NCBI GenBank assembly: GCA_017882335.1
Contig: JADGPR010000006.1
Coordinates: 5,419-69,418 of the forward strand
DNA from: Bacteroidales bacterium
GTDB taxonomy: Bacteria; Bacteroidota; Bacteroidia; Bacteroidales; FEN-979
Direction: 5' to 3'
DNA length: 64,000 nt
Shown here: piece after piece, positions 36,952-64,000 of the stretch
Position numbering within the stretch: the stretch's first letter is position 1
Layout: the number at the start of each line of letters is the position of its first letter
Made by a program: the position numbers and the translations under genes
Notes under the pieces: model-generated
Told to the model about the DNA's origin: nothing
Databases searched by the model: none
The model's input: the letters and a program-made list of their open reading frames with translations, nothing else

Positions 36952-36958
36952 ATTCTAC

Positions 36959-40269: not shown

Positions 40270-40287
40270 ACTTTTCAGAATTATTTT

Positions 40288-41484: not shown

Positions 41485-41495
41485 GACTTTGAAGA

Positions 41496-42044: not shown

Positions 42045-42082
42045 GTTTTCAGTTTTATAGAGTTCGTCTTTGAATGACTGTT

Positions 42083-43336: not shown

Positions 43337-43353
43337 AATCTTTTTATTATGAG

Positions 43354-44817: not shown

Positions 44818-44820
44818 GAT

Positions 44821-44918: not shown

Positions 44919-44920
44919 AC

Positions 44921-47050: not shown

Positions 47051-47475
47051 GGATTTTTATGAAGCGTATCGGTTTCTTTTTTTAAAAGGGCTTTTGAATA
47101 AAAGAGCTTATAAGGAGGCGTGGTGGTTCCTTTTATCCCCAGCCGTTCTACCTTTTTAGCGATCTCGGTTTGCTTGCCTACATCCAACATCTTCGCTTTT
47201 GCTGTTATTGACTGATACCGCAATTCTTTCAGTTCATTTTTTATTTTTTCGATATTTTTGAATGTCTTTTCCGAGTAATAGGTATTGCCGATATAAAACA
47301 TGGCGAGGATGGCTATGAAGATGAGGAATGGCAGATTCCTGAGCACGGCATGATTCGACAGAAGATCACCGCCGATGACATCATGGATCCCTTTGGTCAT
47401 CTTCCGGGGCTTCCTCACGGGACGGATTTCTTCCATCTGTGATTCCGGCGTTGGATTTTTCTTTTCCTCCTCCAT
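47047..47475 (-). CDS. ftsL: FtsL-like cell division protein
   Basis: 142 aa with a single transmembrane span (LPFLIFIAILAMFYI) and a coiled coil. It sits between rsmH and ftsI. Confidence 0.7.
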   Translation of the reverse strand: MEEEKKNPTPESQMEEIRPVRKPRKMTKGIHDVIGGDLLSNHAVLRNLPFLIFIAILAMFYIGNTYYSEKTFKNIEKIKNELKELRYQSITAKAKMLDVGKQTEIAKKVERLGIKGTTTPPYKLFYSKALLKKETDTLHKNP

Positions 47476-47478
47476 TTA

Positions 47479-48372: not shown

Positions 48373-48838
48373 TTTCCGGTTCTTCAGGTTTATGGAGTTT
48401 CCCCATCACTTTTTCCGCCAGGTCAGCATATTCCTCGTCCGACATTTTCAGATGCTGCTCATATTCCTCTTTAGCCCATACTTCAATTCGATTGGAAAAT
48501 GCAGATAAGATCAGATCCTTCTGGATCCGGGCGTATTCCAATAAAGTTTTAGGTATAAGGACTCGATTGCTGGCGTCAAGCTGAAGTTCCGTTGCCCCTC
48601 TGTTGAAATTGCGGGCAAAAATCCGGTGATCTTTAACAAAAAGGTTCAATTGATTTACATCCCTGCTGACCTCTATCCACTCATTCATAGGGTACATGGT
48701 CAGGCAGTTCTCAAAACCCCGGTTGATGACAAATTTCTCCTGCGCTTCCGGCGGGATTTGCTTCTTCAGCCCGGCAGGAAGGATAATACGCCCTTTGTCG
48801 TCGATACGGCATTCATATTCACCGTGGAGAATGGTCAT
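48362..48838 (-). CDS. mraZ: division/cell-wall cluster transcriptional regulator MraZ
   Basis: Two SpoVT/AbrB-like halves with DDKGRIILP and DASNRVLIP. I prefer the ATG at 48838, because the longer track ORF (to 48892) reads through the operator repeats. Confidence 0.9.
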   Translation of the reverse strand: MTILHGEYECRIDDKGRIILPAGLKKQIPPEAQEKFVINRGFENCLTMYPMNEWIEVSRDVNQLNLFVKDHRIFARNFNRGATELQLDASNRVLIPKTLLEYARIQKDLILSAFSNRIEVWAKEEYEQHLKMSDEEYADLAEKVMGKLHKPEEPENVS

Positions 48839-48875
48839 AGCAGGGGGAAAATTTGAAGGTGTAAATATATAGGAA

Positions 48876-48902
48876 TCCCCACGATTCCCCACCTTTCCCC
48901 AC
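48876..48902 (-). promoter_or_regulatory. putative MraZ operator: three direct GTGGGGA repeats at 10-bp spacing upstream of mraZ
   Basis: The minus strand reads GTGGGGAAAG GTGGGGAATC GTGGGGATTC. On the plus strand this is TCCCCAC at 48876-82, 48886-92 and 48896-902. The site lies 38-64 nt upstream of the mraZ ATG and is directly preceded by a near-consensus -7 box AATATTTG (plus strand 48903-48910). Confidence 0.65.
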
Positions 48903-49012: not shown

Positions 49013-51319
49013 TCAATGAATCACTACGATTTTGGTAGTGAATGGGTTGGCAGACTCGTGGGGAGAAAGAGGGGATACAATAAGAAAATAAATGCTTTCA
49101 GTGAGATTGGCTACAAAGAGAGAAATTGAATTGGAGGCAAGAAAAACTTTTTGAACTACAGATTGACCCAGGCTGTTGTAAAGTGTTACCTGAAAATACT
49201 CAGGATTGAAACGCTGAACGGATTGGATGAATACCTGCTGGTCGGCCGGGTTTGGATATACCACAAATTGCTTTGTTGATGCAGGTCCTTTTTCTTCGAT
49301 CGCTGTATAAACTACCGGGCTTGTTTTATGACTGAAATAATTCAATCCTCCTGAAAAATTTCCCACGATAAGGTCCATAAAATCCGGATCTTCCAGGTTC
49401 GCAACAGTGGCAGCCGTCCGGTAACCAAATGAAGAAGGTATTGGAGATCCGCAGAGAACGGTCAACAGGGAATCCGCTCGTGTAAATGTGCCATTCAGGT
49501 TCCCGTCAATATTCGTATAATAATGAACTTTCCCTTCCTCGCAACCAACGATCAGGCCGGTCTTTCCGGAAGGATCCTTGAAAAAGAATGGTGTGCTATA
49601 CCCGTCATAGGAGATCAATGGATTTGTTACGACTACTTTTCCCAGGCTATCGGTCACATGCGTAAAAACAGGCGAAACTAAAGTCCCGGTATTTTGATAA
49701 TACACAAGGGTTCCTTTCTGGTTCCCGATCGCAAGGTCCGGCAACCCGTCTTCGTCAAGGTCGAATAACTGAGGCGTACTGAAACTCCCGGCGTCGATCT
49801 TCTGATATTGAGTTTGTGCAGGAGCAAAAACCGGTTCATGACCGGAACCGGCAGTATTTTGAAAATAGGTCAGCGATCCGTCAGCATTCCCGATGATCAT
49901 GTCCAGGTCACCATCTCCATCCAGATCTGCAAAAGTCGGGTAAAATCCGAGACCATGAAGCCTGGAAAGGTCAGCAAAATCATCGGTTACAAGGTGAAAG
50001 GATGGATTGTTGGGTTGTCCGGTATTTTTATAATAGGAGATCTTCGATATAAATACAGACTTCAATGATCCCTGGAAATAATAAGAAGAATCATATTCAC
50101 CGTAATTGCCGATCAGAAGATCCGGTAAACCGTCTCTGTTAACATCTGTAACAACGGGATAAGCATTTGTACCTACATCGATCATTTCATTTTGAAAAAA
50201 ATGATCAGTCTGAAATTGAAATACCGGGTGATCATTGGTTCCGGTATTTTTATAGAACCAGCAGCTACGCTTGTTTTCAGAAACGTAGAAAGAGGGATCA
50301 AAAGGAGAAGCCACCAGGTCGCGGATGCCATCATTATCCATATCTAGGAAAGAACAGGCGGGAAAGGAAAATAGCCGAACAGGATAAGGATTCCCCGGGA
50401 ATGCGCTGTCCTGGCTGATCATATGCGCAGAATCAATCGTTCCTCCGTTAATCAGGGCGATCAGGTTAGGGAAATCGACATCACCTATGATCAGGTCATT
50501 CAACTCGTTGCCGTCAAGGTCAGCTGCCAGGAGGGTTGAACCGGTATGTTTTGGGGATAACCTATTGCATGATAAATCCGGTAATTCCGAATATTTGTAA
50601 GGACATTGAATGTTCAGGGTGATTTCGTTTCCTCCTTCACTTTCTTTGAAATCTCCCCAGCACTTATCAGAAAGCCTGTAATCAAGACTGTCGCAGTTTC
50701 CGTTTTTTTCCATCGACAGGTTTTTATGGTATTCAATATAAGAACCCAGCCCGAAAAAAGTGAGCAAGTCGAGGTCGCCGTCATGATCAATATCCGAGAT
50801 GGCAGGATAATCTACGGGAGTAAGCAGGATGCCCACTTTCCCGGTATAAAAATAGGAGGTCAACAGGTTGGTAATGAGTTCAAATTTGAGTGAGGTATCG
50901 CTGATGTTCTTGAAAACCCTGACTCCGCCAAGGGAATAAGTGAAAATGTCCTGTTTGCCATCGCAATTGTAATCTGCAAAGATAACCCAGTCATGAAGAT
51001 CAGGAAACAGGGAAGAAAGTTCGGGATGATAGGAATACTTGATTTCTCCTGTTGAGCCTTCATTTATAAATGGAAGGATCCGGTTTCCGAAGCGGTCAAA
51101 GATCACCAGATCGGGTTTCCCGTCAAGGTTGATATCGATCGCCCCGAACTGGCATGAATTCATACCTCCGGCCCATGGAAACTGCAGAGGAACTTCAGAG
51201 ATGTTTTGTGCGGTAATGGCAATAGAAAACCCGCAGATCAGTAACCAGGATAAAAAACAATATGCTGTATGTTGAGATTTGTAACTACTGGAATTTGTCT
51301 GTGATCCGGATCTGCCCAT
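49013..51319 (-). CDS. FG-GAP/VCBS-repeat protein with T9SS-type C-terminal sorting domain
   Basis: It has a signal peptide and many copies of D.DGDGK.D-type FG-GAP/VCBS motifs (DINLDGKPDL, DIDHDGDLDL, DLDGDGDLDM, DLDEDGLPDL). The C-terminus (VVYPNPADQQVFIQ...IYFLIV...TKIVVIH) is typical of T9SS CTDs. Confidence 0.8.
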   Translation of the reverse strand: MGRSGSQTNSSSYKSQHTAYCFLSWLLICGFSIAITAQNISEVPLQFPWAGGMNSCQFGAIDINLDGKPDLVIFDRFGNRILPFINEGSTGEIKYSYHPELSSLFPDLHDWVIFADYNCDGKQDIFTYSLGGVRVFKNISDTSLKFELITNLLTSYFYTGKVGILLTPVDYPAISDIDHDGDLDLLTFFGLGSYIEYHKNLSMEKNGNCDSLDYRLSDKCWGDFKESEGGNEITLNIQCPYKYSELPDLSCNRLSPKHTGSTLLAADLDGNELNDLIIGDVDFPNLIALINGGTIDSAHMISQDSAFPGNPYPVRLFSFPACSFLDMDNDGIRDLVASPFDPSFYVSENKRSCWFYKNTGTNDHPVFQFQTDHFFQNEMIDVGTNAYPVVTDVNRDGLPDLLIGNYGEYDSSYYFQGSLKSVFISKISYYKNTGQPNNPSFHLVTDDFADLSRLHGLGFYPTFADLDGDGDLDMIIGNADGSLTYFQNTAGSGHEPVFAPAQTQYQKIDAGSFSTPQLFDLDEDGLPDLAIGNQKGTLVYYQNTGTLVSPVFTHVTDSLGKVVVTNPLISYDGYSTPFFFKDPSGKTGLIVGCEEGKVHYYTNIDGNLNGTFTRADSLLTVLCGSPIPSSFGYRTAATVANLEDPDFMDLIVGNFSGGLNYFSHKTSPVVYTAIEEKGPASTKQFVVYPNPADQQVFIQSVQRFNPEYFQVTLYNSLGQSVVQKVFLASNSISLFVANLTESIYFLIVSPLSPHESANPFTTKIVVIH

Positions 51320-51371: not shown

Positions 51372-52532
51372 ATGTCAAGGATTTTAGTGATCGATGATGA
51401 AAAAAGTATCCGCAATACGTTACGTGAAATCTTGAAATATGAAAAGTATGAAGTAGATGATGCGGCGGATGGCCCGGATGGGTTGAAACTTCTGGAATCA
51501 AACAAATACAGTGCAATCCTCTGTGATATCAAAATGCCGAAAATGGATGGCATCGAAGTGTTAGAGAAAATTCTCCTGGTGACGGATACGCCGGTCATCA
51601 TGATCTCAGGGCATGGAACAATTGACACTGCTGTCGAAGCAATAAAGAAAGGGGCATTTGATTATATTTCCAAACCACTGGATTTAAACCGGCTCCTGAT
51701 TACGATCCGGAATGCAATGGATAAATCGATCCTGGTGGATGAGACAAAGATCCTGAAAAAGAAGATCAACGGGGTTCATGAAATGATCGGTGAGTCGGAA
51801 GAAATGCTTAAGGTTAAAGACCTCATTGCCAAAGTAGCTTCAACCGATGCCCGTGTTCTGATCACCGGCGAGAGTGGAACCGGAAAGGAACTTGTTGCGC
51901 GGTGGCTGCATGCACTGAGCAACCGTTCAGAAAATCCGTTCATTGAAGTGAATTGTGCCGCCATCCCTTCCGAGCTTATCGAGAGCAACCTTTTTGGGCA
52001 TGAAAAAGGCTCTTTTACTTCTGCCATCAAGCAACGGAAAGGAGATTTTGAGCTGGCCAATGGTGGTACCTTGTTCCTGGATGAGATCGGTGACATGAGT
52101 CTTTCGGCCCAGGCGAAGGTTCTACGGGCTTTGCAAGAAAACAAGATTACACGCGTTGGGGGAGAGAAGGAGATTCCGGTTGATGTCAGGGTGATTGCTG
52201 CAACAAACAAAAACATCAAGGAAGAACTGGAGAATAAAAATTTTCGTGAGGATCTCTACCACCGATTGAGTGTGATACTGATTGATGTGCCTCCCCTTTC
52301 TAAACGATTGGACGATATTCCCCTGTTGACAAAACAATTTATTTCCGAGATCTGTGAACACCAGGGAAAAGCCCCGCTGGAGGTTATGGAGGATGCCTTC
52401 GATGCTTTGAAAAAAATCAAATGGACCGGTAATATCCGTGAGTTGCGGAATGTTGTCGAAAGGTTGGTGATCCTGTGTGATGGAAGAATCACGGAGGAAG
52501 ATGTTAAAAAATATTCAATGCCGTTGTACTAG
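51372..52532 (+). CDS. response regulator with sigma54-interaction AAA+ domain, lacking a C-terminal DNA-binding domain
   Basis: A receiver domain (ILVIDDE..., CDIKMPKMDG), Walker A GESGTGKE, and a GAFTGA-equivalent loop that reads GSFTSA. The protein ends about 10 aa after the AAA+ lid (NIRELRNVVERLVIL..) with no Fis-type HTH. A TATCTTTG box lies 20 nt upstream. Confidence 0.8.
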   Translation: MSRILVIDDEKSIRNTLREILKYEKYEVDDAADGPDGLKLLESNKYSAILCDIKMPKMDGIEVLEKILLVTDTPVIMISGHGTIDTAVEAIKKGAFDYISKPLDLNRLLITIRNAMDKSILVDETKILKKKINGVHEMIGESEEMLKVKDLIAKVASTDARVLITGESGTGKELVARWLHALSNRSENPFIEVNCAAIPSELIESNLFGHEKGSFTSAIKQRKGDFELANGGTLFLDEIGDMSLSAQAKVLRALQENKITRVGGEKEIPVDVRVIAATNKNIKEELENKNFREDLYHRLSVILIDVPPLSKRLDDIPLLTKQFISEICEHQGKAPLEVMEDAFDALKKIKWTGNIRELRNVVERLVILCDGRITEEDVKKYSMPLY

Positions 52533-52595: not shown

Positions 52596-52856
52596 ATGAA
52601 ACTCCGAAAAAATGTTGCTGTCAGTGAAGCCGGATTGTTGTTTAACCCTGTAACCGGTGAATCCTACTCAGTGAACCCCATTGGTGTTGAGATTATCAAT
52701 CTCCTGCGGGAGGAGAAAAGCCCGGAGGACATCAGTAAATTCATATTGGGGAAATTTGCAACGGATAAAGCCACATTTGAGAAAGACTATCACGATTTCA
52801 TCGGTATCCTTGAACACCACAACCTCTTAGACAGCCATGAAGAAACGAAAGCTTAA
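52596..52856 (+). CDS. PqqD-family (RRE-like) small protein
   Basis: 86 aa. The pattern LLFNPVTGESYSVNPIGVEIINLL.E..SPEDI...L..F..D....E.DYHDFIGIL..HNLL matches the PqqD/peptide-chaperone fold signature. It overlaps the next gene by 20 nt. Confidence 0.6.
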   Translation: MKLRKNVAVSEAGLLFNPVTGESYSVNPIGVEIINLLREEKSPEDISKFILGKFATDKATFEKDYHDFIGILEHHNLLDSHEETKA

Positions 52857-53883
52857 AATTGCCGTCACTGGGTTGAATGCGATTGACAGTCCGGGTCCCG
52901 GGATTTCGGTAATCAGGGCCCTGAGGGAGGCGGCATCGTTTGATGTCAGGATCATAGGACTGTCATACGAATCGCTTGAGCCGGGCATTTACATGCACGA
53001 CCTGGTGGACCGTACATACTCGATTCCTTATCCTACGGCTGGAATCGACACCCTTCTGGCTCGCCTGGAATATATCCATGAAAAGGAGAAACTGGATGTG
53101 ATCATCCCCAACTTTGATGCGGAACTTTACCCGTTTATCAAACTGGAGACGAAACTCAAGGCCATGGGCATTCATATGTTTCTTCCAACCCTGCACCAGT
53201 TCGAGGAACGGCAGAAGGTAAACCTCAACGAATTCGGGAAGAAGTATAACATCAATGTCCCCAGGAGCAAAGTTATTCATGACCTCAGCATGGTATACAG
53301 TCTCCAGTCGGAATTTTCATTCCCGATGATCGTGAAAGGAAAATTTTACGATGCCTCTATTGCATACAGCATCGAACAGGTGAAAAGCTATTATAATAAA
53401 ATCAGCGCCAAATGGGGGCTTCCCATCATCATCCAGGAATTTATCCATGGTACGGAATTCAACGTAACCGGCCTGGGCGATGGTAAAGGCAATACCATTG
53501 CGGCTGTTCCGATGCGCAAGCAATACATCACTGAAAAAGGAAAGGCCTGGGGAGGCATTTCGATTTCTGACGAGGAAATGCTGGATATGACGCGCAAATT
53601 CCTGCGCACAACAAAATGGCGTGGTGGATTTGAACTTGAACTGATGAAAAATAAGGATGGCGAACTTTACATGTTGGAGATCAATCCGCGCCTGCCTGCA
53701 TGGATCTACCTTGCTGTCGGTGTCGGACAAAACATTCCCGAAGCATTGGTCAAGCTGGCCATGGGTGAAAAGGTAAAACCCTTTACAAAGTATACTGTGG
53801 GAAAGATGTTCGTGCGTTATTCATGGGATATGATTGTTGACAGGGAAGAGTTTGAGCAGATCTCAATCTATGGAGAACTATAA
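52837..53883 (+). CDS. ATP-grasp family ligase (carboxylate-amine ligase type), unassigned subfamily
   Basis: 348 aa. A pre-ATP-grasp region (KIAVTGLNAIDSPGPG..), a central block FPMIVKG......I...E, IIQEFI.G.EF.V, and the Mg/ATP loop LMLEINPRLPAW. Confidence 0.7.
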   Translation: MKKRKLKIAVTGLNAIDSPGPGISVIRALREAASFDVRIIGLSYESLEPGIYMHDLVDRTYSIPYPTAGIDTLLARLEYIHEKEKLDVIIPNFDAELYPFIKLETKLKAMGIHMFLPTLHQFEERQKVNLNEFGKKYNINVPRSKVIHDLSMVYSLQSEFSFPMIVKGKFYDASIAYSIEQVKSYYNKISAKWGLPIIIQEFIHGTEFNVTGLGDGKGNTIAAVPMRKQYITEKGKAWGGISISDEEMLDMTRKFLRTTKWRGGFELELMKNKDGELYMLEINPRLPAWIYLAVGVGQNIPEALVKLAMGEKVKPFTKYTVGKMFVRYSWDMIVDREEFEQISIYGEL

Positions 53884-53944: not shown

Positions 53945-53957
53945 GTGACTTTGTCAC
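53945..53957 (+). promoter_or_regulatory. perfect palindrome GTGAC-TTT-GTCAC upstream of the decarboxylase gene (candidate operator), overlapping a -7-like TGACTTTG
   Basis: The sequence ctctGTGACtttGTCACtttttt lies 22 nt upstream of the ATG at 53979. Confidence 0.35.
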
Positions 53958-53978: not shown

Positions 53979-55334
53979 ATGAGTAAAACAAGATACGAAC
54001 GTCCGGTGATTAAGAAACTTGAAACCGGAATGCCGAATAAATTCGGGACGAGAACAGAATATGAACCGATGACGCACATCGATGGGGTAGCGGTAAAGGA
54101 CCTGATCAAAGAGTTTGGTTCGCCTCTGTTCGTCATTTCTGAGAAAACCATCCGCGATACGGTGAAAAAAGCCAAAAAAGCTTTTGGAACGCGCTATCCC
54201 AAGGTTCAGTTTGCCTGGTCGTACAAGACTAATTACCTGAATGCAATTTGCAATATTTTCCACCAGGAAGATTCCTGGGCAGAAGTGGTCTCGGGTTTTG
54301 AATACGACAAAGCCATTAACCTGGGAGTGGATGGCCGGAAGATCATCTTTAACGGTCCGGATAAAAGCGAACAGGATCTTACAAAGGCTATAACCAATGA
54401 TTCTCTGATCCACATCGACCACCTCGATGAATTATATTCTATCAGAGAATTAGCCGATAAACTGAAGAAGCGTCCGAGAGTGGCAATCAGGGTGAACATG
54501 GATACGGGTGTATATCCTATGTGGGACCGATTCGGTTTTAACTATGAAAACGGTCAGGCGTGGGATGCCATCAACAAGATCATGCATTCGGAAAAGATGG
54601 AACTGGTCGGACTTCATTGCCACATTGGTACTTTCATGCTTTCGCCATTTGCTTATGGCACTGCGGCATCTAAGCTGTCTGAACTGGCGCTTGCCGTTGA
54701 ACAGAAATTCAAACATGAAATAAAATACATCGACATGGGGGGCGGATTTGCTTCGAAGAATACATTGAAAGGTTCCTATCTTCCGGGAACCGATACCAAT
54801 CCCACCTTTGACGACTTCGCGGAAGCCATTTCCACAGTGCTTCTTAACAGTAATTTCAAAAAAGATAAATTGCCATTGCTCATCCTCGAAACCGGCCGCG
54901 CCCTTGTTGATGAGGCAGGTTATTTGCTTGGGTCAGTGATCTCAAACAAGCGTTCCAGTACCGGCCGCCGCAACACCATAATCGATGTCGGGGTAAATAT
55001 CCTCTTTACATCCTTCTGGTACGATCACAAAATCACCCCGGCACAGCCGTTCACCCATTATTCAGAAGATACCTGCCTATACGGACCGCTCTGCATGAAC
55101 ATCGATGTGATCCGCGAAAGCGCCAACCTGCCGTTGCTCAATATGGGAGACCATATAGTGATCCACAATGTGGGTGCATACAATATGACCCAGTGGATGC
55201 AGTTTATAACTTTGCGGCCCAACGTGGTGCTTATCGACCTGGATGAAAAACCGCATCTGATCCGGATTAAGGAATCACTGGAAAATATGAACAGCATGGA
55301 ACGGGTGCCTTCACATTTAACTTTTGACCGTTGA
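53979..55334 (+). CDS. PLP-dependent decarboxylase, Orn/DAP/Arg (alanine-racemase-fold, group IV) family
   Basis: The PLP lysine in FAWSYKTNY, then HCHIGT, DMGGGF, ETGRALV, and GPLCMNIDV (CxxxD-type), with NVGAYN at the C-terminus. Confidence 0.8.
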   Translation: MSKTRYERPVIKKLETGMPNKFGTRTEYEPMTHIDGVAVKDLIKEFGSPLFVISEKTIRDTVKKAKKAFGTRYPKVQFAWSYKTNYLNAICNIFHQEDSWAEVVSGFEYDKAINLGVDGRKIIFNGPDKSEQDLTKAITNDSLIHIDHLDELYSIRELADKLKKRPRVAIRVNMDTGVYPMWDRFGFNYENGQAWDAINKIMHSEKMELVGLHCHIGTFMLSPFAYGTAASKLSELALAVEQKFKHEIKYIDMGGGFASKNTLKGSYLPGTDTNPTFDDFAEAISTVLLNSNFKKDKLPLLILETGRALVDEAGYLLGSVISNKRSSTGRRNTIIDVGVNILFTSFWYDHKITPAQPFTHYSEDTCLYGPLCMNIDVIRESANLPLLNMGDHIVIHNVGAYNMTQWMQFITLRPNVVLIDLDEKPHLIRIKESLENMNSMERVPSHLTFDR

Positions 55335-57541
55335 GTTTTAAAAAAACAACATATCTCTTTCCCTCCTTCCTTTCCAGTGTAGTGAATAGCTATACACAGA
55401 TTTTCTTTTCGAACAGCAAGATTTTCGCATTGATCCTGATGGTGGTATCGTTTTTCGACTTCTGGGCAGGTTTGAGTGGATTTATTGCAATTGTTGTATC
55501 GAATGCAATGGCTTATCTCATCGGGTTCAACCGGATGAACATAAAGAATGGATATTACGGATTCAATAGCTTGCTGGTAGGATTGGCACTTGGAGTTTAC
55601 TATCAACCCGGACCGGAATTTTTCATTGTGCTCGCATTTTCTTCGATGCTTACCCTTTTTCTAACCTTGATGGTTGAGGGGGTAGTAGGAAAATACGGAT
55701 TGCCCTTCCTGAGCCTTTCGTTTTTACTTGCAACCTGGCTGGTAAGCCTTGCCACCCGGCAATTTACCGCATTGCATGTCAGTGAACGGGGTATTTTCAT
55801 GACCAATGAGATGTTTGCATTGGGTGGGAACCGGATGGTAGAATCTTACAACTGGCTGGCAAATTTGAGGATCTATGGATCTGTCCGGCTTTATTTCACT
55901 TCGCTGGGCGCCATTTTTTTTCAATATCATCTCTTTGCAGGGATTCTTGTTGCGATAGGGCTTCTCATCTATTCACGAATTGCATTTATCCTGTCCCTGG
56001 TAGGTTTCTTTTCAGCCTATGCCTATTATATCTTTATCGGGGCCGACATTCAGGAACTCACATCCAGCTTCATCGGCTTTAATTTTATCCTCACTTCGAT
56101 TGCCATTGGCGGGTTTTTCATCATCCCTTCACGATGGTCGTTTTTATGGGTGATCCTTCTTACACCCCTTATTTCAATCATTCTCACGAGCACCAATGTG
56201 ATATTTTCAATTTTCCAGCTATCGGTTTATTCATTGCCTTTCAACATTGTAGTGCTGATTTTTCTTTATTCCCTGAAGTTCCGTGAACGGTTTTATGATA
56301 AACCCCAATTGGTGGCTTACCAGCAATTTTCTCCTGAGAAAAACCTTTATTCACATGTGAACTACAAAACCCGTTTTGGTAAATCACTCATTTTCCCCTT
56401 TGTCTTACCTTTCTGGGGTGAATGGAAAGTGACCCAGGGCCATAATGGGAAGTTCACGCACCAAGGCGACTGGCGTCATGCGTGGGATTTTGAAGTGACA
56501 GATGAGGAGGGGCTTACCTATTCCGGAGATGGAAACAACTGTGAGAATTATTATGCCTACAACAAACCGGTAATTGCACCTGCAGATGGCCATGTGGAAG
56601 AGATTGTTGATGAAGTGGAGGAAAATGAAATCGGCAAGGTAGACCTGGAACATAATTGGGGAAACACCATTATCCTTCGCCATACAGACCAACTCTATTC
56701 AAAGTTGTCGCATCTGAAAAAAAAGAGCTTTAAAGTGGCAGTGGGAGATACTGTGAAGAAAGGACAGGTTCTTGCCAACTGCGGGAATTCTGGCCGTTCG
56801 CCGGTGCCACACGTTCATTTTCAAATCCAGGGAACACCCTATATTGGATCCAAAACGCTTGATTATCCCATCAACCATTATATTCTTCATAAAGCAGGAA
56901 TTTTCGAATTGAAATCTTACATTTCTCCTGAAAACAATGCACTGGTTTCGAATATCAGTAAAAATAGTTCTCTTGAAAAGGCATTTCATTTTATCCCGGG
57001 ACAAAAATTCAAGCTCAATGTAACCCAACCGGGGGAGAAGGATTACCAGGTAGATTGGGAGGTTCAGATTGACGCAGTGAACAATATGTTTATTTTTTGC
57101 GAAAAGAGCAAATCACGTGCTTATTTCCGTAACGATGACGATATTCATTACTTCACCAATTTTGAGGGGAACAAGTCATCGCTTCTCTTTAAATTTTTCC
57201 TGGGTGCCTACAAAATCATGCTGGGTTATTACAACAACCTGCTGGTAAAAGACCAGTTCCCGGTAAACATGTTTAATAACTGGATAGTTAACCTGGGGCA
57301 GGATTTTATTGCGCCATTCTGGATTTTTTCACATTCGGAATACAGTCTCAAATACCTGGGCATGGATGATGCACTGATGCAGACCAAATTCCGTTTACGG
57401 TCGATGGTATGTGCAAAGGTCGGGAACCGTGAAATAAAAAAAATGGAGTGTGAATTGTTTATAGGTCCTCACGGACTCGAACTGTTTGTCATCAACGAAA
57501 ATGAAAAAATAACAACAGTTAACCTGGTGAGTGGCCGATGA
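55331..57541 (+). CDS. fusion protein: urea-transporter (UT)-like 10-TM domain + M23 metallopeptidase domain + uncharacterised C-terminal domain
   Basis: The N-terminal ~320 aa have UT-family hallmarks (VVNSYTQIFFSNS..., GYYGFNSLLVGLALG, a second half with FIGFNFILTSIAIGG). The M23 core spans aa ~350-505 (HQGDWRHAWDFEV ... NCGNSGRSPVPHVHFQI). About 230 aa of unassigned sequence follow. The TTG start overlaps the upstream stop (GTTGA). Confidence 0.7.
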   Translation: MSFKKTTYLFPSFLSSVVNSYTQIFFSNSKIFALILMVVSFFDFWAGLSGFIAIVVSNAMAYLIGFNRMNIKNGYYGFNSLLVGLALGVYYQPGPEFFIVLAFSSMLTLFLTLMVEGVVGKYGLPFLSLSFLLATWLVSLATRQFTALHVSERGIFMTNEMFALGGNRMVESYNWLANLRIYGSVRLYFTSLGAIFFQYHLFAGILVAIGLLIYSRIAFILSLVGFFSAYAYYIFIGADIQELTSSFIGFNFILTSIAIGGFFIIPSRWSFLWVILLTPLISIILTSTNVIFSIFQLSVYSLPFNIVVLIFLYSLKFRERFYDKPQLVAYQQFSPEKNLYSHVNYKTRFGKSLIFPFVLPFWGEWKVTQGHNGKFTHQGDWRHAWDFEVTDEEGLTYSGDGNNCENYYAYNKPVIAPADGHVEEIVDEVEENEIGKVDLEHNWGNTIILRHTDQLYSKLSHLKKKSFKVAVGDTVKKGQVLANCGNSGRSPVPHVHFQIQGTPYIGSKTLDYPINHYILHKAGIFELKSYISPENNALVSNISKNSSLEKAFHFIPGQKFKLNVTQPGEKDYQVDWEVQIDAVNNMFIFCEKSKSRAYFRNDDDIHYFTNFEGNKSSLLFKFFLGAYKIMLGYYNNLLVKDQFPVNMFNNWIVNLGQDFIAPFWIFSHSEYSLKYLGMDDALMQTKFRLRSMVCAKVGNREIKKMECELFIGPHGLELFVINENEKITTVNLVSGR

Positions 57542-59031
57542 AAAGCTGTTTTGTTCTTTTTTTGGTTTTTTTTCTATTGTTGATTTTATCGTCAAAGGCA
57601 GGAACAAAACTCGATTTCAAAACAGTAGATATGCTTACATACCGTTTTTTTGAAGAAAAGAAATGGGACAGCGTGATAGTGGTCGGCAAGCAAGCCTTGC
57701 ACCAGGATATCGATTATTACTACCTGCGGGTAAGGCTGGGCATTGCTTACTTTGAAAAGCAGGAATACATTCCGGCAACAGTGCATCTGAGGAAAGCAAG
57801 ACAGTTTAATTCAGGAGATCCGATGGTTTCAGATTATCTATACCGGGCATATGTTTATACGAACCGGAATGAAGAGGCGCATATCCTTAAGGAAACCTTC
57901 CCTGTGGAGGACAGGGAAACAACCGGTTCAAAAAGCGGTTTTTTGGAACTGGTGCATTTTGAAAGCGGTTATACACTCAGCAGTGACAATGCCCCGAAAA
58001 ATCTTTCCACGCTCATGGGTCACGATAGCATTTATGGAGAACAGGATCTTTATGGCAATAACTTTTATACTGATCTCAATGTTAAGGTGAAGATTTCAAA
58101 CCGGGTAAGTATTTCGATGACGTATAACTACCTCAATTTCACTAAGACGAAATACATTCAATTTGGCAAAAGGGAGGATAATTTGAATAGTATAACCGAT
58201 ACCATCTTTGGTAAAAATTATAATTATACATTTCCCTGGGTTATTTATGATACCAGTTTCAGGTACCATATCAGTCAGAACGAAGTACATATTGGCGCAA
58301 CAATAACCCTTCCGGATGGATTTAAGATCATGCCGGCCATCCATTGGGTACATGTCAGCTACCCCATGATCAACTCAAGATTCCATATGGATTCCATCCA
58401 GGATACGGCATTTTATACTAGCATTGACAATGTATATCATACATTCCCTTTTGCACGTGCAAGTTATTCATATGAACAGAAAGATACCGCGTTCAACAAT
58501 TGGGTGGCTTCACTCACGATAACCAAAGATCTTGGCATTTTCAATATTGGTCTATCCGGAAGCTGGTCGAACCTGAATAACAAAAAACAGATCCAGGCTG
58601 GGCTTATACTGACCTATTACCCGCTTGGGAACCTCAATTTTTACGGAACCAACACCGTCACCGGATTTTTCCAGGGGAAAGATACTAGGCTGCTGTTAAG
58701 CCAGGTTATAGGGGCAAAAGTCGCACCCTGGTTATGGCTCGAAGGAAACTTTTATTACGGGGATTATACCAATGGCAACATTTTCAATAGTTCAATCATA
58801 TATAACAACAGCGACATCATTGATTACCGTGCTGGCGTCAACCTGGTCTTTGTTATAAATAAACACATTCAACTGTCACTCATTTACCAGTATTTCCGTA
58901 AGGAAAACCAGCAATTGTACTACGTTAAAACCATTAATCCAGACACACACCTTCCCATTGAAACACTAAAAACAGAGAATAATCCATATAACACTAATAC
59001 TTTAATAGGAGGAATCACATGGAAACTGTAA
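57538..59031 (+). CDS. outer-membrane protein: N-terminal TPR-like segment + beta-barrel
   Basis: Signal peptide (FVLFLVFFLLLILSSKA). About 110 aa of TPR-like helices (..DYYYLRVRLGIAYFEKQEYIPA..) precede ~380 aa of alternating beta-strand sequence ending ..GGITWKL. ATGA overlap with the upstream gene. Confidence 0.55.
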   Translation: MKSCFVLFLVFFLLLILSSKAGTKLDFKTVDMLTYRFFEEKKWDSVIVVGKQALHQDIDYYYLRVRLGIAYFEKQEYIPATVHLRKARQFNSGDPMVSDYLYRAYVYTNRNEEAHILKETFPVEDRETTGSKSGFLELVHFESGYTLSSDNAPKNLSTLMGHDSIYGEQDLYGNNFYTDLNVKVKISNRVSISMTYNYLNFTKTKYIQFGKREDNLNSITDTIFGKNYNYTFPWVIYDTSFRYHISQNEVHIGATITLPDGFKIMPAIHWVHVSYPMINSRFHMDSIQDTAFYTSIDNVYHTFPFARASYSYEQKDTAFNNWVASLTITKDLGIFNIGLSGSWSNLNNKKQIQAGLILTYYPLGNLNFYGTNTVTGFFQGKDTRLLLSQVIGAKVAPWLWLEGNFYYGDYTNGNIFNSSIIYNNSDIIDYRAGVNLVFVINKHIQLSLIYQYFRKENQQLYYVKTINPDTHLPIETLKTENNPYNTNTLIGGITWKL

Positions 59032-59681
59032 TAATTAAAAATTACGAATTACGAATTACGAAGGTTTCGCTACTTCGCTATTTCGCTACTTCACTATTTC
59101 TCTTCATCACCCTCGGCCTCTTCTCCCAAAACTATACAGTGATGCATGAGGCATTCGGAAAAAGTTATGAGTTTGAATCGAAGGGAAATTATTCGGAAGC
59201 AATTTCCGTTTTAAAGAAGGTATACCAGGAAGATTCATACGAAATCAACCTGCGCCTGGGATGGGTGACCTACCTTGCTGGTCAGTTTACCGAATCGTCG
59301 GCTTATTATCAGGAAACTATGAAGCTGAAACCCTATTCCATTGAGGCAAAATTCGGGTTTGTCTATCCGGCTTCCGCCTTGGGAAACTGGGACCAGGTCA
59401 TAACCCAGTACAATGAAATTCTGGCAATTGACCCGCAGAATACACTTGCCAATTATCGCATGGGATCAATTTATTACGGGAGAAAGGATTATGCAAAAGC
59501 GGAAAAATACCTGGAAAAGGTGGTAAACCTCTATCCGTTTGATTATGATAGCCTGGTTCTCTATGCCTGGACAAACCTAAAACTGGGGAAAATGCGGGAA
59601 GCGCAGGTGCTCTTCAACAAAGTGCTGCTGAACAGGCCAAAGGATTCCTCTGCGCTTGAAGGGCTTTCTCTTATTAAATAA
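59019..59681 (+). CDS. tetratricopeptide-repeat protein (start uncertain: 59019 or 59142)
   Basis: TPR units (..GNYSEAISVLKKVY.., ..FTESSAYYQETMKLKP.., ..NWDQVITQYNEILAIDPQN.., ..DYAKAEKYLEKVVNLYP..). The first ~30 codons, including the putative signal peptide, are encoded by simple tandem repeats. Confidence 0.65.
   Translation: METVIIKNYELRITKVSLLRYFATSLFLFITLGLFSQNYTVMHEAFGKSYEFESKGNYSEAISVLKKVYQEDSYEINLRLGWVTYLAGQFTESSAYYQETMKLKPYSIEAKFGFVYPASALGNWDQVITQYNEILAIDPQNTLANYRMGSIYYGRKDYAKAEKYLEKVVNLYPFDYDSLVLYAWTNLKLGKMREAQVLFNKVLLNRPKDSSALEGLSLIK
59040..59105. repeat. (AATTACG)3 followed by five TTCGCTAC-type octamers
   Basis: aattacg aattacg aattacg aaggt ttcgctac ttcgctat ttcgctac ttcactat ttctcttc. 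It overlaps the annotated 5' end of the TPR gene. Confidence 0.85.
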
Positions 59682-59717: not shown

Positions 59718-62700
59718 CTAATCCTTTAAGCATCGGACACTGAATGCATTCGCCCTGCTTGCAGGATAAAGCGCTACACTGGGATCATAATCATTCATCA
59801 CATGCGCCCAGGATTTGGTGGAAGTATATGCCGTTGAAGACCAAAAGAAGGTGGCGAAACCGTCATAGCTCCAGGAGATGTTGAACAACCTGGTACCTGC
59901 TAATAATGCATTGTACCCGGAATATCCGGAATATTTCAAAGGGCTTCCTGCAAAGCCATTGTTTGTCCAGTTGACAAATAATATATTCCAGTCATTTTCT
60001 GTCGGCACATGCCATCCCGGGGGGCACAATCCCTGGTTCGACACAGAAAAATCGTACTGCATCAATTCATCCCATTGATAGAACACGGATCCGGTGGTGC
60101 AGCGCACAGGGATATCGTTGTAACAGTACTTTTCAACTATGCAATTGTCCCTTTGAGTTGATGATCCTGCTATCTGTGACCCATAGTTCAGGTTGGCAGC
60201 CATCCAGCACTGGGTGCCGATCTGAACGGTAGGATAAACCTTGTTGTCCCTGATATCGGTGATCGGGCTTCCACAATTGACAATTGAAAATGGATAATTG
60301 ATAATATTGGCATGGGCAAGGGTGCTGCAGAGTGCTGCATTGGTGTAGGTATACGTGATTGAGTGTGTGCCTATGCCTGCGAGTGATGGGGTAAAAACGC
60401 CGGTTAAGGAATTGACTCCTGGTCCCGAGTAGGTTCCCCCCAATGGAATTCCACCTTTGAGCATAAAGGGTTTGGCATTGATGGTTGTAACCGTATCAAA
60501 ACAAGGGTTAAAAGTAACAATAGGATTACTGTTAACCGACATGGTGATTGCATTGCTGGTGGCAGGATTACCACTGGTACAGGTGAGGTTGGAAGTCAGC
60601 AAACAGGAGATCAAATCGTTATTTGATGGATTATAAGTGTATGCCGGGTTATTGGTACCAACATTGATCCCGTTGACTTTCCATTGATAGGATGGAGAGC
60701 TGCCACCATTTGCAGGTATTGCAGTGAAAGTAACTGCGATACCCGCACAAACCGGGTTATCCGATGCAGCAAGTGAAACACTGACCGGCAGGTTGGGATT
60801 GACAATCATCTGAAGCTGGATGCTGGATGCTGGATTGCTGGATGTACAAGATTCTGACGAAGTAAGTACACAGGATACCAGGTCCCCGTTTGCCGGAATA
60901 TAGGTGAAGTTTGGAATATTGGTTCCGACATTTATTGAGTTAACCTGCCATTGGTATGCAGGCAATATTCCTCCGTTTACAGGATTTGCAGTGAATGAAA
61001 CAGAAGTTCCGGAACAAACCGGATTTGCATCAGCAGATATGGAAATGGTGACAGGCAGATTGGGGTTAATTGTCATTACCACTATATTGCTTGTTGCCGG
61101 GTTACCGGAAGTACAAGTCAGGTCAGAAGTCAGAACACAGGAAACCGCGTCATTATTGGATGGCGCGTACGTGAATGCAGGTGAATCTGGGCCGATATTG
61201 ATACCATTCACTTTCCACTGGCAGGTTGGTAAAGCCCCTCCATTGACCGGTGCTGCTGTAAATGTCACTGGTGTGCCGGCACAAACGGGATTGGCTGATT
61301 CTGCAACTGAAACACTGACCGGCAAATTAGGATTGACGGTCATTATCACGGTTGTGCTTGTGGCAGGATTCCCTGTTGTACATGATAAGTCAGAAGAGAT
61401 CATACAGGAAACAGCATCATTATTGGATGGTGTGTATGTAAACAATGGTGAATTTGATCCTTGATTAACTCCATTGACTTTCCATTGGTAAGTTGGTAGA
61501 GTCCCTCCGTTAACAGGTGTCGCAGTAATTGTAATAGGAGAGCCGGCACATACCGGGTTTGCATCGGGTGAAATTGTCACACTAACCGGCAGATTTACAT
61601 TGACCGTCATGTTGACCTGGTTGGAGGTTGCGGGATTATTGGCGATGCAAAGCGTTTCGGAAGAATTAAGTATACAGATGACTTGATCATTTTCGGCCGG
61701 AGTGAAAGTATATATGGGGTTGTTTGTGCCGACATTGATGCCATTTACCTGCCATTGGTAAGTTGGAGAGGTTCCTTCATTTTGTGGGGTCGCCGTAAAT
61801 GTAACAGTTGATCCTGAACAGACCGGATTGGCCGAAGGAGATATCGATATATTGACAATATTAACCGGGTTAACAATCATTATAATGGCATTGGATAATG
61901 CTGGATTATTGGAGATGCATGTGATATTGGATGAAGTTAAAACACAAGCGACAATATCTCCGTTCAGCGGAACATAGGTATAAACAGGAAAATCGGAACC
62001 GGCATTGAGTCCATTCACCTTCCATTGGTAAGAAGGATTTATCCCGCCATTGGTCGGTGTGGCTGTGAAAGTTACCATAGTTCCTACGCAAATGTTATTG
62101 GAAGAAGAAACAATGGATATATTTACAGTACTAATTGGAATTACCGTTACAATATATGCTACTGTATTTCCAACACAACTCCCCAATACTGGCGTAATAA
62201 AATAGGTTACAGTTTCATTGACTGTATTTGAATTTGTGAGCACCTGGTTGATCGTATTTCCTATACCAGATGAATAACCGGCAACAAAGCCTGAGGAACC
62301 GGTAGCTGTCCACGAAAATGTTGTAATTGGAACATTTGAAGTTAAAATAATATTTGTTGAATTGCCTGAACAGATCGATTTTGCCAGGGGGAAATTCGTG
62401 ACAACTGGAGTTGTAATGGTTAACAACTGGACTGTATCCATAACCTGGCACCCGCTTGTATTTGTGACAGTAACCTTATATATACCAACCAGACCCGTTG
62501 TGAAAGTCTGTGATGTTCCAACTGTTAAACCGGAACCGAGGTCTATCCACAGATAAGTGCAACCCGCACATGCGCCCGCATCGAAGATAACGGTTTGTCC
62601 CTGGCAAACGGTTGTATCCGGTCCAAGGTTTACGGGTGTAACTGAATATAACGACACGTTCACCTCATCGTTTGCTGTGCAGCCGGTTTTTGTAACGGTT

Positions 62701-64000
62701 ACGGAGTAGGTCCCGGCGACTGATACGATGATCGTTCTGATAGTTGCCCCGGTCGACCAGAGGTAGGTTGTATATCCTGCGCCGGCATCAAGAGTGGTAT
62801 AGGTTCCCGGGCAGATGCTCCTGTCGGGTCCCAGATTTACAATAGGCACAGCTCCGATAATGATGGTCTTGCAAAGACTCACTTGGTCTGGCAGCCCCTC
62901 GTTAACTAATAATCTTACATTATAGGTTCCGGGCTGGTTATATGAGAATGGTGGTGGGTTGAACAAAGTGGAAGACGGAACCGATGCATTGGCGCAAGGG
63001 GGGAAAGTCAAACGGGTAAGTGTATTCGATCCCCTGTTAGTTATATAAGCAAAAAGAGTATCATTTTGACGGAAGATCTCAGAAAAGCTGTGAGGCAGAT
63101 TGAGATTACCAATGTTCCCTAAAACCTGACCTGTGACAGTACCTGTAACCCCTCCTGTAAAAATCAATTTGCCCAGTTGCCCGTTCGTAAGATATTTTGT
63201 AAAGTAGCCGCTTGTTAAATCACAATCACGAACTATTGAGAGTCCCCCTCCAGACAAAACACCACCGGGGTTACCTAAATTTTCTCCGGTTGGAACATTC
63301 AGAAGTGAATTACCAAATGTCAACCGGGATATACTAGCGTTGCCATTTATCATTAACGCATACCATAATAGGTTTTCCTTAACAATACATAAAGGACCTG
63401 GATTGATCAAAACTCCTAAATCTCCAAAGTCTGTTATTGTTGGGATGTTAGTTAAGCTGTTTCCAAAATTGAATCTGACAAATTTATCTCCCGTAGAACA
63501 GTTTGCAAATGCCATCCATGTTGTACCTTCTTTCATTACAACCAATCCATGTAACATAATTAACCCGCTAAATGGACCCAGATCAATGGCTGTTGGAGTA
63601 TTCGCTAAAGAAACGCCAAAATCCAACCTGACCAATGTAGTGTTGTTACAAACAAATCCATACCAGTTTCCATTATCCTTTTTTACTTGAATCCCTTCAA
63701 TGGAAGTACCAAGTATACCACTAAAAGTTCCGAAATTAGTCCAGCTTATCGGATTATGATTAAATGTCGTCCCATGGTAATATCGGATTATTCCAGCCTG
63801 TTGACAACTTATAAAGGAATAACAATTGTTTCCATCCTGAACAAGTGTCATATATGTTGGAACACTAAGCAAACCTCCTGCATTTCCAATATTTACCCCT
63901 GTTGGATCATTGGTTGTATTTCCGGAACAAAAATTCCAATAAAAAGTTGATCCTCCGGTTGTCAGGTTTGTAATAGTTATCTGAGCGCCGATACAGCTGG
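59718..64000 (-). CDS. giant surface protein (5'-truncated by window): beta-propeller-like repeats, PKD/PKD-like domains, six tandem ~89-aa Ig-like repeats, C-terminal Fibrobacter-succinogenes-major-paralogous (FISUMP) domain
   Basis: The reading frame stays open upstream of the track start to the window end. The C-terminal ~185 aa match the FISUMP pattern (DIRDNKVYPTVQIGTQCWMAANLN...CPPGWHVPT..DW..L...AGG.LK......FFWSST......AW......V......AFSVRCLKD). The middle holds 6 repeats with NPVC.G..VTFTA.P.NGG..P.YQW.VNG. Confidence 0.8.
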   Translation of the reverse strand, partial: SCIGAQITITNLTTGGSTFYWNFCSGNTTNDPTGVNIGNAGGLLSVPTYMTLVQDGNNCYSFISCQQAGIIRYYHGTTFNHNPISWTNFGTFSGILGTSIEGIQVKKDNGNWYGFVCNNTTLVRLDFGVSLANTPTAIDLGPFSGLIMLHGLVVMKEGTTWMAFANCSTGDKFVRFNFGNSLTNIPTITDFGDLGVLINPGPLCIVKENLLWYALMINGNASISRLTFGNSLLNVPTGENLGNPGGVLSGGGLSIVRDCDLTSGYFTKYLTNGQLGKLIFTGGVTGTVTGQVLGNIGNLNLPHSFSEIFRQNDTLFAYITNRGSNTLTRLTFPPCANASVPSSTLFNPPPFSYNQPGTYNVRLLVNEGLPDQVSLCKTIIIGAVPIVNLGPDRSICPGTYTTLDAGAGYTTYLWSTGATIRTIIVSVAGTYSVTVTKTGCTANDEVNVSLYSVTPVNLGPDTTVCQGQTVIFDAGACAGCTYLWIDLGSGLTVGTSQTFTTGLVGIYKVTVTNTSGCQVMDTVQLLTITTPVVTNFPLAKSICSGNSTNIILTSNVPITTFSWTATGSSGFVAGYSSGIGNTINQVLTNSNTVNETVTYFITPVLGSCVGNTVAYIVTVIPISTVNISIVSSSNNICVGTMVTFTATPTNGGINPSYQWKVNGLNAGSDFPVYTYVPLNGDIVACVLTSSNITCISNNPALSNAIIMIVNPVNIVNISISPSANPVCSGSTVTFTATPQNEGTSPTYQWQVNGINVGTNNPIYTFTPAENDQVICILNSSETLCIANNPATSNQVNMTVNVNLPVSVTISPDANPVCAGSPITITATPVNGGTLPTYQWKVNGVNQGSNSPLFTYTPSNNDAVSCMISSDLSCTTGNPATSTTVIMTVNPNLPVSVSVAESANPVCAGTPVTFTAAPVNGGALPTCQWKVNGINIGPDSPAFTYAPSNNDAVSCVLTSDLTCTSGNPATSNIVVMTINPNLPVTISISADANPVCSGTSVSFTANPVNGGILPAYQWQVNSINVGTNIPNFTYIPANGDLVSCVLTSSESCTSSNPASSIQLQMIVNPNLPVSVSLAASDNPVCAGIAVTFTAIPANGGSSPSYQWKVNGINVGTNNPAYTYNPSNNDLISCLLTSNLTCTSGNPATSNAITMSVNSNPIVTFNPCFDTVTTINAKPFMLKGGIPLGGTYSGPGVNSLTGVFTPSLAGIGTHSITYTYTNAALCSTLAHANIINYPFSIVNCGSPITDIRDNKVYPTVQIGTQCWMAANLNYGSQIAGSSTQRDNCIVEKYCYNDIPVRCTTGSVFYQWDELMQYDFSVSNQGLCPPGWHVPTENDWNILFVNWTNNGFAGSPLKYSGYSGYNALLAGTRLFNISWSYDGFATFFWSSTAYTSTKSWAHVMNDYDPSVALYPASRANAFSVRCLKD
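60528..62126 (-). repeat. six tandem ~267-bp coding repeats (Ig-like modules) inside the giant surface-protein gene
   Basis: By eye the protein repeats are 87-90 aa each. Conserved blocks are NLPVSV.., ANPVCAG..VTFTA.PVNGG.LP.YQWKVNGIN.G.., FTY.PSNNDAVSC.L.S.L.C.SGNPATSN...M.VNP. Confidence 0.85.

Follow-up and report, generated by a model that had tools for sequence, protein, structure and literature searches.

A urea-transporter-type channel fused to an atypical M23 peptidase domain is the signature of a conserved six-gene module

A 64,000-nucleotide stretch of DNA from a Bacteroidales bacterium (GenBank assembly GCA_017882335.1, contig JADGPR010000006.1, positions 5,419 to 69,418 of the forward strand), referred to below as the window and numbered from its first letter, encodes a protein of 736 residues, here designated UT-M23, in which a channel domain of the urea transporter (UT) fold is followed by an M23 metallopeptidase domain and by a C-terminal domain treated here as an orphan. 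M23 proteins are usually seen as extracytoplasmic enzymes of the cell wall, and a UT protein is regarded as a plain urea pore; several hundred species join the two in one protein. By fold and by profile UT-M23 belongs to both families, but it lacks the urea-recognition motif of the one and the HxxxD motif and the extracytoplasmic location of the other, the location being predicted from topology. The gene for UT-M23 is the signature of a conserved module that also encodes a PqqD-like protein, an ATP-grasp enzyme, a decarboxylase and two putative envelope proteins, and the function of the protein is plausibly new.

Domain layout of UT-M23

The open reading frame and its domains are as follows.

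55331 to 57541, plus strand: UT-M23 open reading frame, 736 amino acids with a TTG start, comprising UT channel, M23 peptidase and orphan C-terminal domain
55331 to 56380, plus strand: UT-fold channel domain, residues 1-350, including a predicted cytoplasmic helix of the C1 type (residues 335-349) with the conserved sequence SPEKNLY
56393 to 56845, plus strand: M23 metallopeptidase domain, residues about 355-505
56846 to 57538, plus strand: putative orphan domain, beta-rich, residues 506-736

The Pfam family UT (PF03253) matches residues 15-314 over almost its whole length (positions 2-290 of 292 of the hidden Markov model (HMM), E 1.5e-57, 195.5 bits against a cut-off of 25), and Peptidase_M23 (PF01551) matches residues 410-500 in part (HMM positions 12-88 of 96, E 1.2e-16, 61.1 bits against a cut-off of 28.7). 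Some gene callers begin the protein at Met37, giving a product of 700 residues from which the conserved first pore helix is removed; because residues 10-36 are conserved in homologues, the 736-residue form is the conserved and correct one.

A preliminary description of the window had recognized a UT channel from the blocks SYTQIFF, GYYGFNSLLVG and FIGFNFILTS, an M23 core with an intact HxH, and some 230 final residues without a recognizable motif. All three blocks are in the reading frame, and the channel is borne out by the Pfam match, by an end-to-end alignment with a urea channel of solved structure and by structural superposition; the HxH lies in PHVHFQI at residues 493-499, and neither Pfam nor a profile search of the PDB matched the last 230 residues or so.

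The channel domain

When UT-M23 was compared with PDB sequences by phmmer, residues 12-340 aligned with the entire Desulfovibrio urea channel dvUT. The C-terminal UT helix is retained in UT-M23, because the TPEDNL motif of dvUT is kept as SPEKNLY. The internal repeat of the UT domain is weakly visible at the sequence level (E 0.015). An initial AlphaFold model, for which the alignment was shallow (37 sequences with identities of 63% or more), was dropped for its poor UT domain, with a pLDDT of 64.9. The final model, built on an alignment of 112 homologues down to 26% identity, has a pLDDT of 93.7 and a pTM of 0.87, values that imply a fixed domain arrangement in which the modelled M23 domain and tail are packed on the channel. 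With Foldseek, the N-terminal domain superimposes on dvUT with TM-scores of 0.83-0.88 and on UT-B and UT-A with TM-scores of about 0.78, over the full length of the targets, and the model has the complete UT fold, with ten predicted transmembrane helices, two half-helices and pseudo-twofold symmetry.

Urea recognition in UT channels has been attributed to a motif written as Q(Pa)-T(5a)-T(5b)-Q(Pb), together with aromatics of helices 3a and 3b (PMC11589576). Mapped onto this published motif through the dvUT alignment, the pore residues of UT-M23 are Q23, F78, S128, A194, F250 and S301, and their frequencies over the 112 sequences at the four motif positions are listed here.

Q(Pa): Q23, Gln in 79 of 112
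T(5a): S128, Ser in 92 of 112
T(5b): S301, Ser in 72 of 112
Q(Pb): A194, Ala in 67 of 112 and Ser in 24 of 112

The pore motif thus reads Q-S-S-A rather than Q-T-T-Q, its better conserved half being the cytoplasmic one. The pore aromatics are mostly kept, with Phe or Tyr at position 78 (helix 3a) in 100 of the 112 sequences and Phe at position 250 (helix 3b) in 79. UT-M23 scores 118.1 bits against the NCBIfam Yut equivalog model TIGR03441, for which the cut-off is 274.6, and so falls outside that equivalog. The domain is a UT-fold channel of a divergent subfamily, and its pore may plausibly be open to small polar solutes. Its specificity for urea is doubtful: because part of the urea-recognition motif has been lost, the permeant is probably something other than urea itself. 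In comparison with the UT or SLC14-type channels dvUT, Yut and UT-B, UT-M23 has the same full fold, the pore aromatics, motifs of the LPxxS/TxPF type and the motif of the C-terminal cytoplasmic helix, but its pore motif is altered, its Yut score is below the cut-off, it carries 385 extra residues that are predicted to be cytoplasmic, and in the loci examined it never lies beside urease genes.

The M23 domain and the orphan tail

The residues expected of an M23 active site are conserved without exception: H377, D386, H461, H494 and H496 (codons at 56459-61, 56486-88, 56711-13, 56810-12 and 56816-18, respectively) do not vary in any of the 112 sequences, which reach down to 26% identity, and the same holds for Q369, T376, N432, G444-N445 and Q500. 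H494 and H496 form the HxH, and H461 corresponds to the additional catalytic histidine. The sequence HQGDWRHAWDF, which the preliminary description had put forward as an atypical zinc motif, is present at residues 377-387, but the invariant pair within it is H377 and D386; H383, inside HAWD, is His in only 53 of the 112 sequences, Tyr, Lys and Phe being common there. The first zinc motif is accordingly written here as H377-x8-D386, in place of HxxxD, the putative assignment of zinc ligands being based on residue conservation. Among M23A enzymes, such as LasA, the His-Asp spacing is variable. An insert of about 25 residues (389-412) separates the strand bearing the Asp from the strand KPVIAPADG.

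The second M23 gene of the window (20003 to 20977, plus strand), already noted as canonical in that description, served as an internal reference. It encodes a membrane-anchored protein with HEGMDF and PHLHYE that covers HMM positions 1-96 (E 5.8e-35), and its HEGMDF sits immediately before the KPVIAPADG-type strand, a position at which UT-M23 has no counterpart. In Foldseek comparisons the middle domain of UT-M23 superimposes on the M23/LytM domains of EnpA, DipM and StM23 with TM-scores of 0.72-0.78. UT-M23 shares with M23 enzymes of the lysostaphin/LytM type the fold, the HxH, the additional catalytic His and an invariant NWGN motif, and differs from them in its H-x8-D motif, its 25-residue insert, its predicted cytoplasmic site and its lack of a signal peptide or of any LysM, SH3b or coiled-coil targeting module. 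To judge from these residues, the domain looks like an active hydrolase and not like a degenerate LytM factor, and the assembled cell wall is unlikely to be its substrate.

Residues 506-736 are confidently modelled by AlphaFold as a beta-rich domain with three short helices. No Pfam family matched this region, whether the single sequence or 28 family members individually were scanned; a family profile of the domain found no sequence relative in the PDB; and the top 50 Foldseek matches of the whole UT-M23 model were to UT and M23 structures only, with none for the tail. The region is therefore treated as an orphan domain, apparently lacking sequence relatives outside the UT-M23 family.

Topology

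Solved UT structures have ten full and two half transmembrane helices; their termini both lie inside the cell, and a long extracellular loop connects the two halves (PMC11589576; PMC10541013). When this published sidedness was applied to the helices of the AlphaFold model, Lys and Arg averaged over the family numbered 7.1 in the inside loops (52 residues) and 2.2 in the outside loops (67 residues), and the average net charge was +4.6 inside and -3.0 outside. No further membrane segment was found past residue 325, where the maximum 19-residue hydropathy is 0.93. A longer form of the protein, with 1305 residues (protein P0218, locus L085, 3358-7275), is UT-M23 fused in frame, through a hydrophobic segment resembling a signal peptide, to the gene in the position of the 497-residue barrel protein described below. 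This fusion occurs in at least ten independent assemblies of one high-GC lineage with otherwise normal gene order, and the signal-like segment would place the tail that precedes it in the cytoplasm. The relation of the appended half to the barrel family is suggested by position alone, hhalign giving a probability of 1.7%.

Because of the UT topology, the positive-inside loop charges and the lack of a later membrane segment, the M23 domain and the tail of this inner-membrane protein are predicted with high, though not full, confidence to be cytoplasmic, and by this prediction the M23 domain departs from the extracytoplasmic location of its family. The same location had been proposed from the ten-helix UT topology, with an additional helix named as the observation that would overturn it; no such helix was seen.

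Distribution and earlier description

The more than 120 close homologues listed all have both the UT and the M23 domain, and are annotated as 'urea transporter', 'peptidase M23' or 'MepM/NlpD'. A search with residues 331-736 alone against 1.84 billion representatives returned 618 clusters (at 50% identity) with E<=1e-30. Among the best 150 of these, nearly all are 700-750 residues long, with the match beginning near residue 325, and the short ones are fragments that start inside the last UT helix. The M23 domain and tail thus appear essentially never to be free-standing, because the matches are either full-length UT-M23 proteins or fragments of this kind. In a scan of one genome per species, UT-M23 was confirmed in 586 stretches, of which the best 80 are mostly from metagenome-assembled genomes (MAGs) of Bacteroidales, Prolixibacteraceae and Lentimicrobiaceae; more distant ones carry the labels Persicimonas sp. 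and Deltaproteobacteria, so that the family overall is found in MAGs of Bacteroidota and of the Myxococcota type. A survey of how often UT and M23 are fused, and in which neighbourhoods, had been suggested earlier; the fusion proves to be common, far beyond chance, and to lie in a conserved module.

The combination of UT and M23 was recorded as newly noticed in a recent survey of domain combinations (Biol Direct 21:32, 2026; PMC12998343), without analysis of its function or context. Neither the cytoplasmic placement nor the H-x8-D site, the tail or the module of six genes was found described in the searchable literature, which also yielded nothing joining UT, M23, ATP-grasp and PqqD and no functional study of a peptidase fused to a UT fold.

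The six-gene module

The gene order of the module is PqqD-like, ATP-grasp, decarboxylase, UT-M23, 497-residue protein and TPR protein. In the window the partners of UT-M23 are the following.

52596 to 52856, plus strand: PqqD-like protein of the RRE type, 86 amino acids, Pfam PqqD E 1.3e-9; kept in the module
52837 to 53883, plus strand: ATP-grasp protein of the ATPgrasp_Ter / PRK12767 'CPS-like' type; the most conserved gene of the module
53979 to 55334, plus strand: fold-type III pyridoxal phosphate (PLP) decarboxylase by Pfam, nearest to FslC by NCBIfam and PDB matches
57538 to 59031, plus strand: 497-residue orphan protein, presumed to be in the outer membrane, with a signal peptide, a TPR-like N-terminal region and a remainder resembling a beta-barrel
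59019 to 59681, plus strand: 220-residue TPR protein, presumed to be periplasmic, with an N-terminal signal-like segment, matches to Pfam TPR families and conserved synteny

All three upstream genes are present in 52 of the 57 loci with enough upstream sequence, and both downstream genes in 66 of the 67 loci with enough downstream sequence. The order is kept at about 29-33% identity in loci L082, L085, L086 and L087, which come from MAGs labelled as Persicimonas-type or Deltaproteobacteria. The functional tie to the neighbouring ATP-grasp and decarboxylase genes that the preliminary description had suggested is thus matched by strong synteny, which extends to these distant members. In five loci of one sub-lineage UT-M23 is accompanied by the barrel and TPR genes, and the three enzyme genes are not nearby.

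The genes from PqqD to TPR look like one operon in the window, because neighbouring genes overlap by 4-20 nucleotides: the TTG start of UT-M23 shares four nucleotides with the TGA stop of the decarboxylase gene (GT-TGA), the stop of UT-M23 shares four with the ATG of the 497-residue gene, the 497-residue and TPR genes overlap by 13, and the end of the PqqD-like gene overlaps the ATP-grasp start by 20. The gap between the ATP-grasp and decarboxylase genes is 95 nucleotides, and all intergenic gaps within the module are of this length or less. A weak hairpin followed by a run of T (53945-53957, plus strand) lies in that gap, terminator-like sites being no more frequent than in shuffled sequence; the scan for promoters and terminators as a whole gave counts at the shuffled expectation. 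PADLOC found no matches to anti-phage defence systems.

The decarboxylase is nearest to the N-citrylornithine decarboxylase FslC (PDB 7KH2, E 1.6e-59, 205 bits), followed by LysA (E 1e-40, 143 bits) and BtrK (about 1e-20, PDB); it matches the NCBIfam FslC model with an E-value of 4.6e-72, under the cut-off of the model. FslC, which acts on N-citrylornithine, and BtrK, which acts on carrier-bound glutamate, both use conjugated amino acids. The ATP-grasp protein is remote from solved structures, its best relatives being carbamoyl phosphate synthetase (CPS), the CPS-like orphan 2PN1 and biotin carboxylases, including urea carboxylase/urea amidolyase.

The PqqD-like protein matches, in addition to Pfam PqqD, the NCBIfam lasso and Scm PqqD models, both under their cut-offs. 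Of the two elements expected in a cluster for a peptide made by ribosomes and modified after translation (RiPP), this 86-residue protein supplies the RRE or PqqD-like element, and a precursor gene was found neither in the window nor in more than 80 loci. A role as a carrier of the LysW type was ruled out for it, since its acidic C-terminal tail is not conserved and it has no invariant attachment residue. A recurrent upstream 'peptide' considered as a precursor proved to be the C-terminus of a regulator of the AraC type.

The 497-residue protein has only 247 homologues, all of them annotated as 'hypothetical'; it has no PDB match, and no Pfam domain was found in 120 listed homologues. By inspection its sequence is typical of an outer-membrane barrel, which it is presumed to be. 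The gene downstream of UT-M23 in locus L087 encodes a true homologue (hhalign 99.2%); the DUF5723 protein of the same locus is unrelated to the 497-residue protein. For the downstream gene of L086, hhalign did not support homology to the barrel, and a relation is suggested by position alone.

Possible functions

The best overall explanation, offered tentatively, combines the architecture of UT-M23, the module and an inferred pathway for an amide compound. The ATP-grasp enzyme would link an amino acid through its side chain in an amide bond, with the PqqD-like protein presenting a peptide or serving as an adaptor in some other way; the decarboxylase would take off the free alpha-carboxyl group of the amide-linked amino-acid moiety; and the M23 domain, at the cytoplasmic mouth of the channel, would cut one amide bond in a step of release or maturation. 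A small uncharged product would then pass the inner membrane through the UT pore and leave through the TPR protein and the barrel. Decarboxylases of the same subfamily act after amide or thioester conjugation in the pathways of rhizoferrin (FslA/FslC), butirosin (BtrI/J/K/G) and vibrioferrin (PvsA/PvsE), and the butirosin pathway also uses a small carrier protein and, as its last enzyme, one that cleaves an amide. The module differs from these three systems in having a PqqD-like protein instead of an acyl carrier protein and a channel-fused M23 domain as the candidate amide cleaver, and in having no NIS synthetase or aminoglycoside genes. The coupling of a membrane conduit to a cytoplasmic amide hydrolase, which UT-M23 would represent, is found in UreI with urease, in AmiS with amidase and in C39-ABC exporters, but those are separate proteins or have other folds.

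Several points weigh against this explanation. It names no concrete substrate; the products of simple amide hydrolysis would carry charge, and a UT pore is not expected to let such products through; that the M23 cleft is docked at the pore mouth is an assumption; and the flux may be either export or import. The nearest solved relatives of the ATP-grasp protein activate bicarbonate or carbamate and are not peptide ligases. No conserved small open reading frame lies upstream of the PqqD gene, and none of 40 residues or more was found beyond the known genes in more than 80 loci; a search of the window for peptides with a Gly-Gly leader by regular expression returned an antisense artefact only. 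Because of the five loci without the three enzyme genes nearby, the membrane trio may also work independently of the enzymes. More doubtful still is a wider formulation in which a hitherto unrecognized pathway would span the envelope, a repurposed UT fold serving as the inner-membrane conduit for the product or substrate of a channel-docked M23 amidase that works with a PqqD-guided ATP-grasp enzyme and an FslC-like decarboxylase.

Uptake followed by catabolism is unlikely, but several observations fit it. The barrel, the TPR protein and the UT pore would admit a small uncharged amide or urea-like compound that the tethered M23 domain hydrolyses on arrival, as UreI feeds urease or AmiS feeds amidase, and the decarboxylase and ATP-grasp enzymes would then process the products. 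UT channels conduct both ways and it is the cytoplasmic half of the pore motif that is better conserved here; five loci have the membrane trio without the enzymes nearby; the neighbouring gene in the window encodes a sigma-54 regulator resembling NtrC, NtrX or ZraR; and urea carboxylase/urea amidolyase and CPS are among the closest solved relatives of the ATP-grasp protein. Uptake is harder to reconcile with the M23 family, whose members are endopeptidases acting on peptides of the Gly-rich or D-amino-acid kind that would not fit through a UT pore, with an ATP-consuming ligase and a PqqD-like adaptor, both unusual in catabolism, and with the biosynthetic roles of FslC and BtrK. A periplasmic M23 domain, acting with the TPR protein and the barrel as an ordinary membrane-anchored peptidoglycan endopeptidase, would agree with the extracytoplasmic location of almost all characterized M23 proteins and with the envelope proteins among the conserved partners, but such an inverted topology is very improbable: the loop charges point strongly to two inside termini, no additional membrane segment exists, the intracellular location of UT termini is established (PMC11589576), and the 1305-residue fusion through a signal-like segment requires a cytoplasmic tail.

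M23 enzymes prefer sites of the Gly-Gly type, a preference that would suit a leader or excision peptidase tethered to the membrane. In such a pathway for a RiPP-like or otherwise peptide-derived product, PqqD would bind a leader and the ATP-grasp enzyme would modify a precursor encoded elsewhere, by analogy with peptidase-fused exporters or with PqqF and MftE. PqqD-family proteins are known only as peptide chaperones, the PqqD-like gene is translationally coupled to the ATP-grasp gene, and loci L046 and L071 encode an extra membrane-anchored protein whose transglutaminase-like core, seen by eye, was not confirmed by Pfam. Neither in the window nor in more than 80 loci was a precursor gene found within or next to the module, and a UT pore cannot pass a peptide, so that a pathway of this kind is quite improbable. 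An equally cytoplasmic use of M23 would be the editing of cell-wall precursors as in vancomycin-resistance clusters, with a LAS-type zinc peptidase trimming precursors in the manner of VanX or VanXY, the ATP-grasp and fold-type III PLP enzymes supplying an altered block as do VanC and the membrane-bound VanT, and the UT domain serving as an anchor or an entry. All three enzyme families have members that act on D-amino acids or meso-diaminopimelate, and the mrdA-rodA genes upstream of about 20-22 loci, with the dcw-like cluster about 2.5 kb away in the window, favour such editing weakly. It nevertheless seems highly unlikely, since the ATP-grasp protein is not Ddl-like (Dala_Dala_lig_C matched with E 5e-4, under its cut-off, and no Ddl appeared in the PDB profile search), the decarboxylase is nearer to FslC than to LysA, the PBP2-RodA neighbourhood probably represents one clade, and the PqqD-like protein, the barrel and the TPR protein would have no role in it.

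If the wider, envelope-spanning formulation is correct, no earlier catalytic M23 enzyme would have a cytoplasmic substrate other than peptidoglycan, and UT-M23 would be the first member of the UT family in a role other than urea transport that is tied to an enzyme. Other parts of the module are likewise without a known role: the orphan barrel, the PqqD-like protein with no visible peptide and the remote ATP-grasp protein. The labels 'urea transporter' and 'MepM/NlpD' probably mislead inferences about the nitrogen cycle and the cell wall that are drawn from metagenomes. Once the substrate is identified, anaerobic Bacteroidota may prove to have a new metabolite or envelope function, and a new mode of coupling between an enzyme and a channel may also come to light.

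Variable neighbours and inserts

The genes around the module differ among lineages. In the window its upstream neighbour is a lineage-specific regulator.

51372 to 52532, plus strand: sigma-54-dependent response regulator, with no DNA-binding domain

This protein has receiver, AAA+ and lid domains and ends at 386 residues without a Fis-type helix-turn-helix (HTH); its best NCBIfam matches, to NtrX, NtrC and ZraR, are all under the cut-offs. Its gene lies 64 bp upstream of the PqqD gene, and such a regulator adjoins the module only in the window and in its closest relatives, L002 and L028. In about 20-22 loci (L004, 1479-5178; L005-L008, L010, L013, L016, L017 and others) the module is directly downstream of mrdA (encoding PBP2) and rodA, followed after 10 bp by the gene for a 199-residue AraC-type regulator with an N-terminal MTCxxC motif that resembles a metal-binding site. 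The regulator is present in about 27 loci, and mrdA-rodA accompany it in about 20 of these; Pfam confirmed its HTH but not an HMA domain. Upstream of the module in L072 and L081 are genes for an ECF sigma factor, a zf-HC2 anti-sigma factor, a Metal_resist (ZraP/Spy-like) protein, a DUF2202 protein and a small secreted protein in which the motif GANFVDxNNDGVCDN recurs; a homologue of the ECF sigma factor is also found in L025. The ECF and Metal_resist genes and the AraC/MTCxxC regulator hint that the module may be controlled by metal or envelope stress.

Insertions between the decarboxylase and UT-M23 genes are of three kinds. A protein of about 300 residues from the IF-2B family (PF01008, E 2.8e-28; MtnA / ribose-bisphosphate isomerase family) is encoded there in six loci (L040, 7022-7930; L047, L050, L052, L059 and L065), with a remnant in L073; L067 has a DUF5714 protein; and L046 (7340-7909) and L071 (7351-7965) have a protein of 189-204 residues with an N-terminal membrane segment, in which a transglutaminase-like Cys-His-Asp core was seen by eye (GDCFRKVQDF...HTIVEVKINSKWLAYDPS) and was not detected by Pfam.

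On the minus strand of the window, a run of open reading frames (33894-48892) that starts with MraZ-like and RsmH-like proteins appears, by eye from translations, sizes and order, to be a dcw-like cluster, its mraZ and rsmH lying about 2.5 kb from the module. Between this run and the module is a gene for a 768-residue secreted protein (49013-51319, minus strand) with repeats that by eye resemble FG-GAP/VCBS. Converging on the end of the module is a gene (59718-63872, minus strand) for a protein of 1384 residues in which a unit of about 90 residues (NPxxxVSISxSANPVCAGTxVTFTA...) is repeated many times in tandem; homologues of this protein adjoin the module only in close relatives.

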